DNA of 62,919 nt, filler included, from Globobulimina sp. (Eukaryota): assembly GCA_003354225.1 (NCBI GenBank). It is 30 parts of 30 records of this genome, joined end to end, with 100 filler letters (N's around TTAATTAATTAA, not from the genome) between each part and the next. Parts side by side here need not be neighbours in the genome. Positions count along the whole stretch, not along the records: positions 2,103 to 4,104 come from PIVH01009841.1; 29 more parts are not named here. One strand, given 5' to 3'. Below, piece after piece: positions 2,103 through 60,370 of the stretch. The notes below the pieces were generated by a model that ran no database searches, was not told the DNA's origin, and worked only from the letters and a program-made list of their open reading frames with translations. The position numbers and the translations under genes were made by a program. How positions within the stretch are numbered: the stretch's first letter is position 1; each line of letters begins with the position of its first letter.

Positions 2103-2702
2103 AGCAGTTTTATTTGCGATTTCTATGCAGCGAGTTCAGCAAACAGTGAATATGAGGCCCGAAAATTGAATGACTGTATCAAAAAATTGGATAGAAATGA
2201 TCTCATTGATATTGTTCGATTTGCAATGACAAAGCATAAAGATATTAGAGACATGGTAGCAGTCAGAATGTCGGAAATAGAATCTGAATCTACGGATTTT
2301 TTGCTCCAAGAATTTCAATATAGAATCAAGGAATTAGTGGAGAAGTTTAGTAAACTAACATGTGAACAACAATTGAATGCAACGGATGCGTTTGTTGACA
2401 ATGTATCAGATATGATATTTGAGGCTAAACATATTAGTTCTGGAAACCAACACATTTCGATGCAAGTGCTCATTCTAATGGCAGAAGCAATCAATAGCCA
2501 CCGAATTGGATCCAATATACGAAAATCAATTGACTCGATGCGAATTAATGATACCATCATATTTACAATGAAAGTTTTGCTACAAAGCAAAGAAATTAAA
2601 AGCAATGCATCCTATTATGAATCTATCCAAAAAATACAATCACAAAAGCGAAATGAATTTGATTCTGTGTTGTCACTTTTTGCTATATTTACTGAGATTT
2701 AA
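2103..2702 (+). CDS. Hypothetical protein, 5' truncated
   Basis: Open frame of at least 178 aa to TAA; no motif recognised. Confidence 0.5.
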   Translation, partial: SSFICDFYAASSANSEYEARKLNDCIKKLDRNDLIDIVRFAMTKHKDIRDMVAVRMSEIESESTDFLLQEFQYRIKELVEKFSKLTCEQQLNATDAFVDNVSDMIFEAKHISSGNQHISMQVLILMAEAINSHRIGSNIRKSIDSMRINDTIIFTMKVLLQSKEIKSNASYYESIQKIQSQKRNEFDSVLSLFAIFTEI

Positions 2703-2792
2703 CTCATTTGACCCAATATTTTTTTTGTTGCTATATTTAATGTTGAAAAGTGGAGTTTTTTTTTAAGTTTTTTTTTAGTACCTACAATACTA

Positions 2793-3842
2793 ATGATGTC
2801 GTGCGAAAGTGAAGAGAAATTATCATATCAACTGGAACCCTTACAACATGAAATAAGATTGGATGAATTAACAGAACTTACAGAAGCACGCACAATAATG
2901 GTATATCACCATCTTTATACTTAAAATTTTAGACTCGTCCCTGACGGAGGCAACATTACTGCCGAAACGTCGGACTTTTAACAATTAAACAAATAATACA
3001 CATTCAAGGTATATCACCCGCATGCAATACTTTTTGAAGAACACAAAACAAGCCATGGTACAGTAATTGCAATACGTGAAATAATTGAACCAACGAACAT
3101 TGAATTTTCGACAAAATTTCGTTCCTCAGTGGATGTGTCACGTTTAATATGTTCCGGAGATTTAGTTTGTAAGATTAATGAAACAAATATTGAACCAAAT
3201 ACACCCTACAAGCAATTTGAAATAATATTAAATCAACAGTTTAAAAAAGCAAACAATAAGCCAGTTAGTATTACGATCCTTAAAACCTCAGACAAAAAGC
3301 ATGGTAAATTACGCAATGCGTCGACTGTTCGAAATGCACTGAAATGGAAATCTCAGCAAGCAGCGCGATACAAAGACCCACGCAATGTATTAAAACGTCG
3401 TTTAGATTCAATTTACATTCAACTATTTATCTTTATACTAATTATCATCGATTTATGTATCTTTGCAGTGGGCGAGGCAGCAAATACAGCTCTAAGCCAA
3501 CAGGACATTGCAATTATAACCTTTATAATATTGGCTATTTATGTGAGTGAAATATTATTGCGTATCTATGCAATGAGAGCAGAAATCTTCTTCAAAGACC
3601 CATTGGAAGTGTTGGACTTAATTGTTGTTATGGCCTCATTCATATTGAATTTAGTGGAATATAGTTCAGCTGCTATGTTTGTTCGAGCAGCTCGATCATT
3701 GCGCGCTTTTCGAGTGTTGCGAATATTCCGATCTTTTAGATTATGTGTTCGGACTTCAAAAACATTACGCAATGCACCGAGGAGTATCCGTCAAGTGGTC
3801 CGACTAAACAAACAGGGATACCATGATGACGAATTTGATTTG
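2793..3842 (+). CDS. Voltage-sensing phosphatase (VSP/TPTE-like), N-terminal part: PDZ-like domain + S1-S4 sensor + linker; intron 2901-3008
   Basis: Four hydrophobic helices; S4 RAARSLRAFRVLRIFRSFR; RQVVRLNKQGYHDDEFDL resembles the VSP/PTEN linker (VSxNKRRYxxDGFDL); upstream ICSGDLVCKINETNI is PDZ-like. Confidence 0.85.
2900..3018 (+). mobile_element. Candidate intron-forming insertion flanked by 11-nt direct repeat GGTATATCACC
   Basis: Repeat at 2900-2910 and 3008-3018; 2901-3008 begins GT, ends AG, contains an in-frame stop, and its removal joins two in-frame exons. Confidence 0.65.
2937..2975 (+). ncRNA. Minimal type I hammerhead-ribozyme-like motif
   Basis: GTCC-CTGACGGA-GGCA(ACATTAC)TGCC-GAAAC-GTC-GGAC: stem I, near-consensus core, stem II, GAAA, loopless palindromic stem III, GUC triplet; core differs from CUGANGA by one nucleotide. 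Confidence 0.65.
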
Positions 3843-4049
3843 TTCTCATAGTTGCAAATAAATCAATAGCTTCCGAAGGTTTTGCATCCGTATACCGATA
3901 TAATAGCCACGCACAAATCATTGTACCTGTTCGACCTTTGCCTCCTTTACAATGTATAGCCACACAATTATCGTCGTGTCGGTCCAACCATTCACTGATT
4001 CCATTGCAAAGTTTAAACATATTTGATATAGTTGGTACGCCATGATCTG
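3840..4049 (-). CDS. PTEN-like phosphatase exon of the same VSP gene, inverted
   Basis: DHGVPTISNMFKLC...AIHCKGGKGRTGTMICAWLLY...RT; preceded by intron-like AT-rich sequence ending AG. Confidence 0.9.
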
Positions 4050-4590
4050 CTCACAAAATATATAAACAATATATACATAAATATATATAGATAAATCATA
4101 CAAANNNNNNNNNNNNNNNNNNNNNNNNNNNNNNNNNNNNNNNNNNNNTTAATTAATTAANNNNNNNNNNNNNNNNNNNNNNNNNNNNNNNNNNNNNNNN
4201 NNNNAAACAAGAAAATATTCCAAAACCGGAATCTATGAAAATTCTTCGAAAAATAAAAATTGATTCATAGCACACTATTTATATTAAACATATTGTTTCA
4301 ATCAATATTTATATTTAACCATCACATTGCTACCATAAACACAGAGAACATGCACAAATTTGGTTACTTTTACTTTCAAATTTGTACATGTTTATGGTCT
4401 CAAACGTCAAATCGTCGAACCCAAAACGTTTCGTGAAGTGATCTGGTCATCTCCTTACACTTCAATTAGTTTACGGTGTGTCAATAGTCTGAGAAACAAA
4501 GTATGTATTTTGGACCAGGAGAGAATCCACTTTGAAAAAGCGTAGACCTTACATGATATACATATATATATATACACTATATTTTAATTA

Positions 4591-21017: not shown

Positions 21018-21463
21018 CAATATCAGATATTGTCATAAAAGGAGGTGAAATTAATCCAATAGTTGACACCTTTATTTACATTGCCATAGATTATCCACAG
21101 CAAGAATTCACTCCTAAGGAGGAGAAGGGAATTCCCGAAATGGAAATTATTCCTATAGCTGATGTACAACCCAGCTTTCCGGGTGGTGAGGAGGCAAGAA
21201 TTAAGTACTTTGGAAATAATGTAAAGTATCCTCCAGTTGCAAGAAGTGTCGGAATACAGGGGGTAGTATATGTTACCTTTGTTGTTGAGAAGGATGGTTC
21301 TGTTACTGATGTCAAAATATTAAAGGGTATTGGTGGCGGATGTGATGAAGAAGCTATCCGTCTTATTGAAAATATGCCAAGATGGAATCCCGGCATACAA
21401 GATAGTAAAACAGTGAGGGTACAATTTAATATGCCTATTAAGTTTACGCTTAGGACATTTTAG
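21018..21463 (+). CDS. tonB: Bacterial energy transducer TonB, C-terminal domain (Bacteroidota-like)
   Basis: PSFPGG...VKYPPVA...IQGVVYVTFVVEKDGSV..VKILKGIGGGCDEEAIRLIENMPRWNPG. Confidence 0.9.
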
Positions 21464-23211: not shown

Positions 23212-23799
23212 TTATGGCATGGCAGCGGTTGACGAATTCGAATCTGTTGTCTCTGACTCTGCATTGACTCTGTTTCCCTGTCCATTTAATATACGTACTG
23301 CTTTTTTTGCATCTTCCAACGTTAATCCGTATTTCCGCTCCACTTTCACAAAATGGCCAGCCATTATTTGTTGGCAGTGCTCATTGCCTTTATCCAAATT
23401 CATATCATCCAACACAACCCATGATTGTACTTGAAACCTTTTATTTAGCCTTTTCTCATTCACTTTAAAATATTGATCAATTTCAACGGCTCTTTTGCTT
23501 CGATGCAAAGTCGGAGTCACTCCAATCACCAAACTATTGATGCTATCAATATCCAGATAAGATTTCAATGTGTTTAGCAATAATTTTCTTGACTCTCTAC
23601 GTTTCCTCCAATTCGATGACAATACAATTTTGGACTCATATTCTGTGTTTGTTAGAATATACTTCAAATATTTCAAATGAATGTTTCCAATGGCGTTGGA
23701 TGGCAGTGTTTCGGAGGAATTGAGAACCCCATCAACATCCAAAAATATAATACATATTGGAAGCGGAGCAATTGTGGGGGGCGCAAAGGAACAACCCAT
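23212..23799 (-). CDS. HAD-superfamily protein (HAD_SAK_2-like)
   Basis: IIFLDVDGVLN, IVLSSNWR, GVTP, RAVEI, WVVLDD, GLT. Confidence 0.85.
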   Translation of the reverse strand: MGCSFAPPTIAPLPICIIFLDVDGVLNSSETLPSNAIGNIHLKYLKYILTNTEYESKIVLSSNWRKRRESRKLLLNTLKSYLDIDSINSLVIGVTPTLHRSKRAVEIDQYFKVNEKRLNKRFQVQSWVVLDDMNLDKGNEHCQQIMAGHFVKVERKYGLTLEDAKKAVRILNGQGNRVNAESETTDSNSSTAAMP

Positions 23800-24084
23800 T
23801 ATTATTAAATTAGCGTGTCAGAAGCAACAATTTTTAGTTGAAAAACATTAGTAATAACTATGATGTAGATTGTAGATGATAATTTCCTTTCATTTTACCT
23901 TCACAGAAACGTCTGTTTGCAATCGGACATTGTATACAATTGTTATTCGTTTAACGTTGAATGAGTTTCCCATCGCTCTTAAATTTAAATAGAGAGAAAA
24001 AAGAAACAAAAAGAAGAACCAAACCAAACCACAATAAAAATAAAATAGCCACACAAAAGCATACAAAGTCATATAATAAGTCGA

Positions 24085-35821: not shown

Positions 35822-37723
35822 TTATTCACATTTGAAAGTTGCAGGACATTTATCACTTGAACCATTATTTGAAGCATCATCATATATCGCATCATCCTCA
35901 TCGTCCAATGGAATTAATTCAGCGCCAACTCTCAAATCCATATCACTTCCACCAAATGCATCGCCGCCATGGTGCCCCAACAATTCATCCTGTTGTTGTT
36001 CATAATGACTTGAACCAGACCTTATTTTATGTAATTTATTCATTAACTCATCCAATTTGATATCGACATTCATCGATCCAACCATGATATGTTTGGACCG
36101 TTTCCGTCCATAATTCCTCCCCAATGTGTTTGTATGCGATGAGCTGTCACTCGAACTCTTCGAATGCGACTCTTCTGCGCATCGCGTCACATACTCCAAA
36201 TTTCCACCTTCCGCATCATTTTCTGGTACCTACATATTTTGATTTATGCCACTTAGTTTCAAACTGACTGTACATAGCCAAATTGCTCACATTTTTGTAT
36301 ATAAATAAGTTTCAAACTGAACATGTGAACAAATTCGGTTTCAAACCATAAAATAAAATGAATTATGACCTGCACAAAAATATCAATAGTTCGTCCACGC
36401 GCATTTCGAACTTTTTTCACATCGGAGCCGGAATCAAATCCCGCCGCAATATCATCGATATCGTCAATTTCCACTCGATCACCGTCCACAATCTCATACA
36501 AATTGAATGAGCTCTTTGGTAAACCGAATTGTATAGAAATTGTACTGCGTAGCTCATCAAAGTTCATTTCATTCCAATTGTACTCTGCGTATAAATCGCC
36601 AGCATCGCCACCTGCAGTTACTATCTCGTTTGATAATGAATATTTAAAATGTTTATTGTTATAATGCACAGTGATGACATATTCGCCTTCATTGTCTTGG
36701 TCCTCTTCTTCTTCTTCTTCGACGATGGGAGAGCCCGAACGAACTGTGGTCATATTCATGTTCATATTGCCTGGCCGGTCCTTGACAATCTCAATGAAAC
36801 TAATTTGTTCCGCATCGCCTTTGGCAACCTTTTCTTTCTTGAATTTCCAACATAGACATCTCGCAAACACTGTATATAAACGTTTGTGAGCCCATTGCAA
36901 AATGGAGCCATGATGTTTAGCTAAAGTCACTTAAAAAAACTTTAGCTAAAAGCATGTGTAAAATGACTAGACCTTGACATTTTAGTTTGAGCAAACTAGC
37001 CATCATAAAATATAAAAAAAAATGCGTAACATACCAACTAAAACCAATACCACAGCACACGCGGCCACAGGAATTAGAAAATCATCCAATGTAAAAGAGG
37101 CAACCACGGCCGCATTGGATGAACCATCCGTATTTTCGTCAATAACTTCAATTGTTGGCTCCACAGTTGGTTCAGACGTTGGTTTTGCCGTTGGAGCAGT
37201 ACTAATCATTGTATACACATCAAAATAATGATAAATTTATATGCAAAATAACAAAACAAAACAAAACCTTGGTTGATTTGTAGGATGTAATGTTGGGTCA
37301 ATTGTAGGCTCAGTACTGTACATCAGATTTATGAGTTAGTTTCAAACCGAAAACAAAAAAAAAGACAAAAAAACTACGTTGGCTCAGATGTAGGATCATT
37401 CGTTGGACCATGGGTTGGAATATATGTTGGTTCAATGCTACATATTATTATGTGAGTTAGTTTCAAACTGAAAAAAAAAAAATAAAAAAAAACCTACGTT
37501 GGATGCGATGTTGGACCACTGCTCGGATTATGGCTTGGTTGTTTGGTAGGGTCCACCGACGGTGCTTTAGTAGGCCGAGTGCTGTATATTCCAAAAATTT
37601 ACGACTTAGTTTCAAACTGAAACTGGAAAAAAACCTACGTAGGATGCGATGTTGGGTCGTTTGTGGGGTCAGTGGTTGGAGTATGCGTAGGTTGAGAGGT
37701 AGGTGGCACTGAGGGCAGTTTAG
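35822..37723 (-). CDS. PT-repeat single-pass membrane protein, 5' truncated; introns 37582-37638, 37438-37497, 37316-37377, 37202-37267, about 36930-37034, 36230-36369
   Basis: PTxx repeats in small exons, TM FLIPVAACAVVLVLV, acidic cytoplasmic tail; GT-AG boundaries keep the frame. Confidence 0.75.
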
Positions 37724-46223: not shown

Positions 46224-46715
46224 ATCCGGTCTCCGTGCCAACAACAGCAATTTCGCCGGCAACAACAAAATCGGTGGTCCAAACTCCCGGGTCATAACTG
46301 GCGATGTGGATGGGATTGGCGGGATCACTAATGTCCAGCACCCAAACACCGTCACCCGCAATACCCATGTAGGCCAGGTCGCCCGAAAGGCTCACGGTGC
46401 CAATGGACTCAGGCGGATTGAAGCGTCCCAGGAGTGACATGTTTGCTGGATCGCTGATATCGATAACAAAGAGACCTTGATTGTAACAAGCCACGTAAGC
46501 CTGGTCGCCAGCAACCTTGACAATATGAGCCGTTGGCCCGGTGATAAGAGAATCTAGGACAACCGGGCTCATGGGATCACTGACGTTAACCGACATCAGA
46601 CAGTTCGCAGAGCATACGTAGACATGGTCCCCCGCCAGGGAAAGGTGTTCCGCATACCTCATTGGCTCTTGAGTTGCCAGAGTTGGGTTTGTGGGATCAC
46701 TGACATCAAAAACAA
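46224..46715 (-). CDS. Prokaryotic LVIVD-repeat protein fragment
   Basis: Repeated GD.AYV.....GL.V.DISDPANP units; GC-rich, no introns. Confidence 0.85.
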
Positions 46716-46719
46716 GCAT

Positions 46720-47416
46720 ATTTCCATTTGCAGCCATCCTTTCAGGTAAAAACAAATTGGATGTGACCGAAGTCAAACCATCGCAGCCCCGCGGCAATGC
46801 GCCGCCCGCCATCTCCATCATTGAGACGGACATCAAAGTGGATTTTAAGGAGCCGCGCGATTACAAGGAATGGGAAAAGAAAAATAGAGGCAAAAATTTC
46901 AACGCGAAGAGCGAAACGAAAGCAAATGAGGAGAATGAGGTGGAGGAGGAGGAGGATTTTGGAGCCATCGATCCATTGCAAGTTGCACAAAATAGCAAGA
47001 AAAAGTATTTCGAGTCGCTTGAGCAGAGCGGCTTTAATGCGCAGAAATTACGCAAACAGAAATCTGCGCTGAGCTCACCGCCATCGGCTGCGGCTTCGCC
47101 GAATAAGAATAGCAACGATTTTGGTGTAATTAACCCATACTCGACTCGCGGATTGCCATTGGGCAAAAGCAAAGGGAGCGTGTCGCCAAATGACAAGAGT
47201 GGAATGTGCGAGTATCATAAGCCGAAATTTATAAATGGCAACATGGCGATGGGCAAGTTATTGAAACAAAAGTCTGTGAGGAAGGAAGAGGAGATTGTTG
47301 GTACTATGCGCTATATTTACGAGGTTGATGAACATGGCAATAGGGATTTAGTGCGGAGGTTGCCGGTAAGGAAAATAAATCCAAATGCGAAAAGTAGTGC
47401 ACATTCATTAAAATGA
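46720..47416 (+). CDS. UFD1: UFD1-family protein, C-terminal half
   Basis: LDVTEVKP...AISIIETDIKVDFKEPRDYKE matches the end of the UFD1 UT3 domain. Confidence 0.75.
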
Positions 47417-59069: not shown

Positions 59070-60370
59070 ATGGATCCGTCTGAACCCGAAAGCAATGCAA
59101 ATAAAGAGAATGTAAATCAGGGCAATTCAGAAGTATCCGCTTCCAAACAAGAGTCAGACAGTGATTCCCAAAGTGACGCAGAATCTAAACAAAATCTGAT
59201 CGATAAGAATGAATTTAATACGAAATATGACAATTTACAAAGACAATGGTTGGATGGCTTTGTCGCTCCAAAAGATTTAGATCCCGAACAAGTTAAAAAA
59301 TACGGCGACCATTCCTATATATTATCATATATCTTACCCGCCAATGACGAAAAAAACAAAGAAATCACATTCCATCCCAATTATTCCTACGCATATACCA
59401 ATTACGAGAAAGACTGTATTTTGCCCTCAATGGACCAGGATACGTTGAAAAAAACCCAGGCAAAGTTCCAAGCGCATGTCGACAGATTGGAAAAGAAAAT
59501 ATTATCCAAAATCAGAAAGCAGCAAAAAAAATTGACCGCAGCCGAGCAAAAAAAGGATGAACAGGAAAAAAAGCGAAAATCCGGATGGATTGTACCTGAA
59601 TTTTGTGTGCCAATTCGTACTGATATCCGAGCGTTTGATTTTTGTGCATTGGCCAAAAAACAAAAGGAATTAAGGTGCGGAAAAAGAAATTATTTTTCCA
59701 GCCCGAAACTGACATTTTTAGTGTCGCATTTTTTCAGTTTGAAACTGAAAAAAAAAAATCCAAAAATATGCATGGATTTTTTTTTTGAGTTTGAAACTGC
59801 AAATTTTCAGTTTGAAACTGAAACGGATGCGCTTTGTGTTGATTTAGTGGCCGTTTATTTGACGTGATTATGATGGATCCGCCATGGCAGTTAGCGACGG
59901 CCAATCCGACCCGCGGCGTCGCGATCGGTTACAGTCAGTTGGAAGATAACATCATATCGGGTTTGCCCATCCATATCTTGCAGGAGAATGGCTTTTTGTT
60001 TGTGTGGGTCATCAATGCCAAGTATCGATTGGCGTTGTCGTTGTTTAAGCGATGGGGCTACAAAATGATTGGCGACGTTTCGTGGGTCAAGCAAACGGTG
60101 AATCGGCGCATTGCCAATGGGCATGGATTTTATTTACAACATGCAAAGGAAACGTGTTTGATTGGCTTGAAAGGCGATATACGGCAGATTCGGTACACAA
60201 AAGGCATTTGTTCGGATGTCATTTATTCGGAAAGAAGAGGGCAGTCGCAAAAACCGGAAGAGATTTATCAATATATTGAACAGTTAGTGCCCAGAGGATA
60301 TTACATGGAAATATTTGCGCGCAGAAATAACCTCAGAAATGGCTGGTTTTCTATTGGTAATGAACTTTAA
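59070..60370 (+). CDS. AMT1: MT-A70 family adenine methyltransferase, AMT1/MTA1 clade (DNA 6mA); intron 59675-59847
   Basis: FDVIMMDPPWQLATANPTRGVAIGY, GHGFYLQHAKETCLIG, SERRGQSQKPEEIY, EIFARRNNL..W.SIGNEL. Confidence 0.9.

Follow-up and report, generated by a model that had tools for sequence, protein, structure and literature searches.

The stretch analysed here, 62,919 nucleotides (nt) of the Globobulimina sp. assembly GCA_003354225.1 and hereafter called the window, is AT-rich, gene-dense eukaryotic DNA with a GC content of about 31%. It harbors a two-exon gene that looks ion-channel-like (the product of its second exon matches Pfam PF00520 with E 3.2e-14), and the two exons are separated by an intron of 108 nt (2901-3008; GT..AG, 65% AT). 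This intron is lineage-specific and recent, and it was made by an insertion accompanied by the duplication of its target. The insert itself carries a motif closely resembling a hammerhead ribozyme. The coordinates of the single features are reported in Table 1.

The direct reading of the sequence reveals the 11-mer GGTATATCACC at 2900-2910 and again at 3008-3018, so that the direct repeat claimed in the first-pass annotation, which included the G preceding the intron, exists in two exact copies. Throughout the window GGTATATCACC occurs at these two positions and, with one mismatch, at a third one, the number of sites expected at one mismatch or fewer being 0.69. The repeat lies in register with the splice sites in the way that had been proposed, i.e., the left copy forms the GT donor and the right copy contributes the G of the AG acceptor. 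Since the coding part of exon 1 (2793-2900) is composed of exactly 36 codons, the intron is in phase 0; if it is read through from exon 1, a TAA codon is met at 2922, and the frame of exon 2 is open only past another TAA, at 2994-2996. Exact direct repeats of at least 11 nt at a spacing of 40-200 nt are common in the window, 34 of them being listed. Repeats of at least 8 nt that are in register with GT..AG and whose removal restores a long open reading frame (ORF) are five, and the GGTATATCACC pair is the only one of these with a length of at least 11 nt.

A repeat search extends the duplication to 20 nt with 85% identity (2891-2910 versus 2999-3018). The six matches found at the nine additional positions are equalled by 2.8% of the 9-mer pairs located at a 108-nt spacing in the window (empirical p ~0.028), and it is possible that the longer duplication is real. 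The idea that this intron is longer than the typical ones turned out to be roughly right, the comparison being with six candidate short AT-rich introns of the window, drawn from a heuristic list that is not RNA-validated, whose length is 59-66 nt and whose AT content is 76-85%; GTAT-type donors are present in four of these six.

The stretch is contained in eight public sequencing runs belonging to four studies, and the contigs of four of these runs (X1, X2, X6, and X8) were aligned to it at 80% likeness. The X2 contig (917 nt) shows no differences over 2788-2899 and a single one over 3008-3600, and skips 108 nt with GT..AG borders (cut +1, both edges being equal over 11 nt); its junction places position 2900 exactly against position 3009. 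The contigs of X6 and X8 represent a variant that is 95-99% alike and is likewise joined to 3008, and these three runs come from three different studies. Hence, the junction foreseen by the first-pass annotation is the one at which the three contigs join. Sequencing adapters terminate contigs at 2752, 2788, and 2816, that is, at the end of the neighbouring gene and at the start of the intron-bearing one, and the depths of the two genes (128 versus 60, 143 versus 21, and 96 versus 6) differ from two- to sixteen-fold; since adapter ends are located at gene boundaries and the contrast in depth is sharp, we infer that X2, X6, and X8 are RNA. The removal of the intron exactly at the predicted sites is supported. 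One contig of X1 (2967-3433, at least 99% alike) carries the 3' end of this intron across the junction, and it is not considered independent evidence because it perhaps derives from the very sample behind the window assembly. X1 has no cover over 2791-2966, and none of the runs yielded extra contigs on the interior of the intron, at an alignment setting that is uninformative on copy number.

In the X6/X8 variant the end of exon 1 (2870-2899) is shorter and altered, with 23-24 letters instead of the about 29 of the window, and this likely represents an in-frame length difference between haplotypes or strains. The loose ends observed at 3598 in X6 and X8 were considered as another splice site and discarded, as they consist merely of three mismatches at the end of the aligned stretch.

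The protein encoded by exon 2 has 12 relatives in the databases, 11 of which were compared (P0012 was left out). Seven of them span the intron site (P0001, P0004, and P0007-P0011), and all seven read ERTI[M/L]VYHPHA unbroken; the remaining four (P0002, P0003, P0005, and P0006) begin downstream and fall short of the site. Thus, the claim that splicing restores an uninterrupted coding sequence is borne out, the spliced product reading ...RTIM|VYHPH... just as the seven spanning homologs do. P0001 shows an in-frame insertion of 21 codons after KWKEEQE, which is present neither in P0004 nor in the window protein; P0007-P0011 all terminate a few residues past EQ[E/Q]G; and P0002, P0003, and P0005 start with unrelated residues directly before ARY. 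These patterns of read-through, termination, and unrelated residues indicate that the relatives carry introns after KWK.EQ[E/Q] and right after NKQG. As six of the seven spanning homologs retain such another, unspliced intron, their contigs are genomic, so that the absence of the 2901-3008 intron is observed on genomic DNA in six cases out of seven. P0004 is a EukProt entry, which may be derived from a transcript, and its record label (Bolivina argentea) may or may not reflect the true source. The existence of uninterrupted homologs and of an intact repeat makes it very unlikely that an old intron was lost everywhere else.

At both intron positions of the relatives (KWKSQQAARYKDPRN and NKQGYHDD) the window gene is continuous. 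It has therefore lost two introns possessed by its relatives and gained one near its 5' end, an arrangement reminiscent of cDNA-mediated intron loss (cDNA, complementary DNA).

Table 1. Features of the intron-bearing gene and of its insert (positions along the window).
Feature	Coordinates	Strand	Remarks
Exon 1, coding part	2793-2900	+	36 codons, ends ...ARTIM; X2 contig begins at 2788 behind an adapter; EEKLSY and ...RTIM common to P0004
Left copy of the 11-nt repeat	2900-2910	+	The intron begins with its bases 2-11 (10 nt); GT donor G|GTATAT
Left arm of the possible 20-nt duplication (85%)	2891-2910	+	From the repeat search
Spliceosomal intron	2901-3008	+	X2, X6, and X8 contigs join across it; in-frame TAA at 2922
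AT-rich 5' part of the insert	2911-2930	+	10% GC
Hammerhead-like motif	2937-2975	+	Found by descriptor scans; no match to Rfam hammerhead models
A-rich 3' part of the insert	2977-3007	+	16% GC; TTAAC (2978-2982) as candidate branch point; acceptor AG begins with A3007
Right copy of the 11-nt repeat	3008-3018	+	Acceptor AG is completed by its first G; exon 2 opens with the remaining bases (codons V Y H P)
Exon 2	3009-3851	+	280 codons plus stop, starts VYHPH; N-terminal conserved domain and voltage-sensor-type Ion_trans segment

According to its GC content, the interior of the intron can be divided into three parts (2911-2930, 10%; 2931-2976, 57%; 2977-3007, 16%), the stretch 2977-2998, which adjoins the right repeat, consisting of A for 59%. 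The interior folds better than expected (z -3.3), only one of 200 shuffles folding as well. The fold of lowest energy is rod-like, GACG being paired with CGUC (-15.6 kcal/mol, z -2.8), and its stem includes only 12 base pairs (bp) with two internal loops. No terminal inverted repeats were found in the insert by the repeat search, no frame across the hammerhead-like motif is open for at least 40 codons, and the search of a protein atlas gave no usable match. The possibility that the intron hosts a small nucleolar RNA or a microRNA was rejected, because the corresponding Rfam matches are at chance level (SNORA66, E 0.68, located in the exon; mir-142, E 9.8).

The hammerhead-like motif embedded in the GC-rich part is 39 nt long (2937-2975) and shows the type I order. 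Helix I is formed by 2937-2940 with 2972-2975 (4 bp) and is followed by the first core strand (2941-2948, CUGA-CG-GA); helix II is formed by 2949-2952 with 2960-2963 (4 bp, with a 7-nt loop and G2949-C2963 as closing pair). GAAA occupies 2964-2967 and overlaps the ACGU palindrome (2967-2970), which forms a helix III of 1 bp (A2967-U2970) with the 2-nt loop CG. The cleavage triplet is GUC, and cleavage would be predicted to occur after C2971. All the 11 specified bases of the hammerhead core are present in the right order, and the three helices can be drawn with both the G10.1-C11.1 closing pair and the A15.1-U16.1 pair. A single edit separates the core from the canonical one: the CUGANGA box contains an additional base, which can also be read as the change of A9 to G together with a bulged A before helix II. 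A descriptor of this variant finds no other site in the window and none in 300 windows simulated under a first-order Markov model; a broader descriptor, allowing one substitution or insertion in the core, retrieves the same sole site and has matches in 12 of 666 simulated windows, which corresponds to a chance of ~1.6e-5 per given 108-nt stretch on one strand. The canonical hammerhead pattern, on the other hand, gives seven overlapping matches at three places of the window, versus 5.9 expected, and none of them is located at this intron.

On the whole, the idea that we tentatively prefer, and which in our opinion falls somewhat short of an even chance, is that a piece of a retroelement bearing a hammerhead would have been inserted in one event, since the hammerhead-like core points to such an element as the source. 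According to this idea, a previously continuous coding exon would have been hit by one insertion between ...ATG and GTATATCACC..., and foreign DNA of about 97 nt (2911-3007), or of 88 nt should the duplication really be the imperfect 20-nt repeat, would have been introduced, with the concomitant duplication of 11 nt of the target. The exon would already have possessed a donor look-alike, G|GTATAT; its left copy would have become the 5' splice site and the right copy would have remained coding, whereas the last A of the insert and the first G of the right copy would form the AG acceptor. The A-rich 3' part may supply the branch-point-like TTAAC, 26 nt upstream of the AG. Given a duplicated donor look-alike and a composite AG, splicing would remove exactly the insert plus one copy of the repeat, and the frame would be restored.

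The source would most likely be a short fragment or a cDNA, such as a severely 5'-truncated Penelope-like pseudo-long terminal repeat (pseudo-LTR) or a retrozyme-type monomer, which might have been integrated either by target-primed reverse transcription or by capture at a staggered break. The features suggesting that the insertion was a retro-insertion are two, i.e., the A-rich 3' end and the long target duplication, and they agree as well with target-primed reverse transcription as with the capture of a cDNA at a staggered break. By itself, this hammerhead copy probably has no activity, judging from its helix III of only 1 bp, from the core being one edit off, and from the greater stability of the rod fold; an inactive hammerhead would also explain why the motif is tolerated inside a pre-mRNA.

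Several observations weigh against this interpretation. As to the intron, an 11-nt flanking repeat is equally expected from the repair of a staggered break; for X2, X6, and X8 no library type is recorded and, were these runs DNA, the joined form would represent an allele devoid of the intron, supporting the gain of the intron but not its splicing; and the homologs, with identities of 58-75%, might be paralogs. As to the motif, the strict spacing of the core (CUGANGA ... GAAA ... UH) is violated, and the hammerhead conformer (-10.6 kcal/mol) is 5 kcal/mol less stable than the rod. Helix II has 4 bp, compared with the 6-8 bp of minimal Penelope-like-element hammerheads (PMC4209133). The Rfam hammerhead models do not match at E<=10 either on 2700-3200 (501 nt) or on 2925-2985 (61 nt), nor do they reach the gathering score anywhere in the window. 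Moreover, the descriptors were written after the site had been seen, so that the chance figures given above are upper-bound impressions rather than clean tests. As to the source, no second copy of the insert exists in the window, which holds dozens of genes; no reverse transcriptase, GIY-YIG, or transposase domain is encoded by any of its 107 ORFs of at least 95 amino acids, so that the GIY-YIG Penelope reverse transcriptase that the first-pass annotation had in mind is missing from the window; and an A-rich end represents weak evidence in a genome with 69% AT. The hammerhead-like motif reported initially is real and goes far beyond chance in the descriptor scans, but it does not pass the strict criteria or the Rfam models: its likeness to hammerheads is strong and stops short of membership.

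The most serious competitor, which we consider possible and rather less probable, is a staggered double-strand break in the exon followed by end joining, in which the fill-in of the overhangs produced the 11-nt repeat and a piece of DNA of unrelated origin was taken up as filler; neither a mobile element nor a family would be involved, and the likeness to hammerheads would be coincidental or irrelevant. The footprint is the same as that of the newly gained introns of Daphnia (PMC4202315); the interior is single-copy in the window; the insert lacks both terminal inverted repeats and Rfam matches; the motif fails the strict hammerhead criteria; and no ORF of a transposon is located nearby. It is the motif that speaks against such an origin, as a near-hammerhead is very unlikely to arise by chance in a given 108-nt stretch (see the figures of the broader descriptor), and a palindromic helix III is typical of the hammerheads of animal type I and of Penelope-like elements (PMC4209133). 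It should be underlined that the filler captured at a break could still be retroelement cDNA, so that the two explanations differ mainly in the source of the filler.

The first-pass annotation had inferred an intron-generating element, and it might be asked whether the intron belongs to an active or recently active introner family, composed of small (<100-nt) hammerhead-carrying elements mobilised by a Penelope-like reverse transcriptase/endonuclease, whose duplications of ~11 nt provide the donor and half of the acceptor. The single copy found behaves as a family member would; families of introners are known in which the target duplication supplies either one splice site or both (PMC9860276), and among the introner examples categorised with confidence about 5% originate from non-LTR retrotransposons (PMC12130899). 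Nevertheless, a family appears doubtful, for three reasons. The 63 kb of the window contain one copy only; no other intron of the window possesses an in-register repeat of at least 11 nt; and the matches retrieved elsewhere are unrelated. In fact, the scan of metagenome contigs with the variant core plus GAAACGTC gave 40 matches, which is roughly the chance number estimated by hand; only three of the 40 have both stems (helix I of at least 3 bp and helix II of at least 4 bp), none comes from AT-rich DNA with related flanks, and none of the five best-looking loci, which were checked, scores as a hammerhead with Rfam. In the same way, the canonical-or-variant core has 18 matches in prokaryote genomes and one in viral contigs, all in unrelated records.

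A much more improbable explanation is that of an old intron lost in all the sampled relatives, with a repeat due to chance and a GC-rich hairpin acting as a functional intronic RNA (for instance, a small RNA, or a structure regulating splicing), which would account for the extra length. The interior does fold better than its shuffles and intron loss does occur in this gene, as the window copy is devoid of two introns of its relatives; however, the intron is missing from all the seven spanning homologs, an intronic 10-nt copy identical to the start of the exon is not expected if the intron is old, no Rfam family is matched, and the stem has just 12 bp interrupted by two internal loops. Lastly, the tandem duplication of an exon segment bearing a G|GT junction, one copy of which turned into an intron (the segmental-duplication model), would agree with a repeat spacing equal to the intron length and with a repeat perhaps reaching 20 nt at 85%, but it is hardly credible, since the similarity of the interior (2911-2998) to its flanks (300 nt downstream, 290 nt upstream) does not exceed that of shuffles (34, 152, 224, and 54 of 300 shuffles score equally in the four comparisons) and the core of the interior, with 57% GC, is unlike the coding flanks.

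Some other features of the window deserve a mention. On the opposite strand, an open frame of 104 codons (3739-4050, -) bears the catalytic motif of protein-tyrosine/dual-specificity phosphatases (Pfam PF22785, PF22784, PF00782, and PF00102) and shares ~110 nt with the end of the voltage-sensor gene. Voltage-sensing phosphatases consist of a voltage sensor and a PTEN-like phosphatase; here these parts are oriented towards each other, which is suggestive of either an inversion or a misassembly. The same frame matches PTP-SAK (E 1.7e-08), a domain of the 'Swiss Army Knife' RNA-repair set, to which HAD_SAK_2, found at 23215-23817 (-) with E 1.9e-22, also belongs. Domains of bacterial type were found at 21020-21460 (+) (TonB_C, E 1.2e-20) and at 46225-46860 (-) (LVIVD repeat, E 1.6e-26), in segments with a GC content of 37-40% versus about 30%; these frames might have been acquired by horizontal transfer, or they might represent contamination or a chimera. 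The palindromic 13-mer CAGTTTGAAACTG occurs nine times with one mismatch or fewer, versus 0.15 expected (36254-36319, 37458-37619, and 59735-59820); its copies are embedded in longer local repeats, and it might represent either a small repeat or a motif with a regulatory role. Runs of 44 N are arranged in pairs every ~2.1 kb (58 runs, 2552 N in total) and are masks rather than assembly gaps; one of these pairs (4105-4204) is located just downstream of the intron-bearing gene.

The interest of the locus lies in the fact that few single-event intron gains have both a legible footprint and an insert whose source can be guessed. Four coincidences meet here, namely splice sites provided by a duplication, relatives without the intron, the loss of two other introns in the same gene, and a near-hammerhead insert. 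If the insert derived from a Penelope-like element or a retrozyme, the list of sources from which new introns are known to arise would be extended to that class of retroelement, and the locus would be a natural case of a hammerhead motif tolerated in a spliced pre-mRNA; if an introner derived from a ribozyme-bearing retroelement were involved, self-cleaving RNAs would be linked to the birth of spliceosomal introns. If the insert were unique filler, this would be one more break-repair neointron, well documented and ordinary.

The closest known counterparts of the intron are the staggered-break neointrons of Daphnia pulex, in which the repeats between exon and intron ends measure 4-12 bp (PMC4202315). 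They have in common with it the restriction to a lineage or population, the repetition of the terminal bases of the adjacent exon at the far end of the intron (here 11 bp), and a unique interior of unknown source; in our case, the direct repeat is located at the opposite intron end and the insert is unique within the window. What differs is that the interior here includes a GC-rich motif, structured and hammerhead-like, and ends in an A-rich stretch, which points to a specific kind of source DNA.

With introners, as described in PMC9860276 and PMC12130899, the intron has in common an insertion with target duplication, the partial or complete supply of splice sites by the duplication and the neighbouring exon, and an unchanged mRNA length; indeed, its splice sites come from the insert and the target duplication, and the mRNA is restored. 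However, introners are defined by many similar copies, and a single copy, without terminal inverted repeats, is seen here. In cut-and-paste introner families the target duplications are 3-9 bp long (a range quoted there from earlier work), compared with 11 bp, possibly 20, in this intron. Introners derive from many transposon classes, including non-LTR retrotransposons (PMC12130899); neither 'Penelope' nor 'ribozyme' appears in the main text of that paper, and a full-text search of the literature found no work combining introners and hammerheads.

As to the ribozyme, the type I hammerheads of metazoans have a helix III of 1-2 bp with a palindromic loop of 2-4 nt and cleave only as dimers, and the minimal ones of Penelope-like elements have a helix I of 4-5 bp and, at the 5' end of helix II, a base that is not paired, besides the 6-8 bp of helix II quoted above; rotifer motifs with a small palindromic helix III are also mentioned (PMC4209133). 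The motif of the intron resembles them in its 4-bp helix I, in the possible unpaired base before helix II, and in its 1-bp helix III with a 2-nt palindromic loop, suiting the formation of dimers. Compared with Penelope-like elements and non-LTR retrozymes, the core is one edit off, and in the window there is a single hammerhead-like site, with no pseudo-LTR, no tandem arrangement, and no ORF for a reverse transcriptase or GIY-YIG domain. Its occurrence as a lone copy is in keeping with the fact that most genomic copies of such motifs are single and dispersed (PMC4209133; preprint 10.64898/2026.07.22.740005); the retrozymes of Xenopus are reported to be depleted from introns and exons (the same preprint).

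Finally, the Penelope insertions of Adineta vaga are flanked by target duplications of 8-10 bp and have a very low copy number, being often single-copy (PMC3846280). They carry pseudo-LTRs of about 180-220 bp, compared with the less than 100 nt of the insert described here; in the length of the duplication, in the low copy number, and in the existence of 5'-truncated copies, the two resemble each other.

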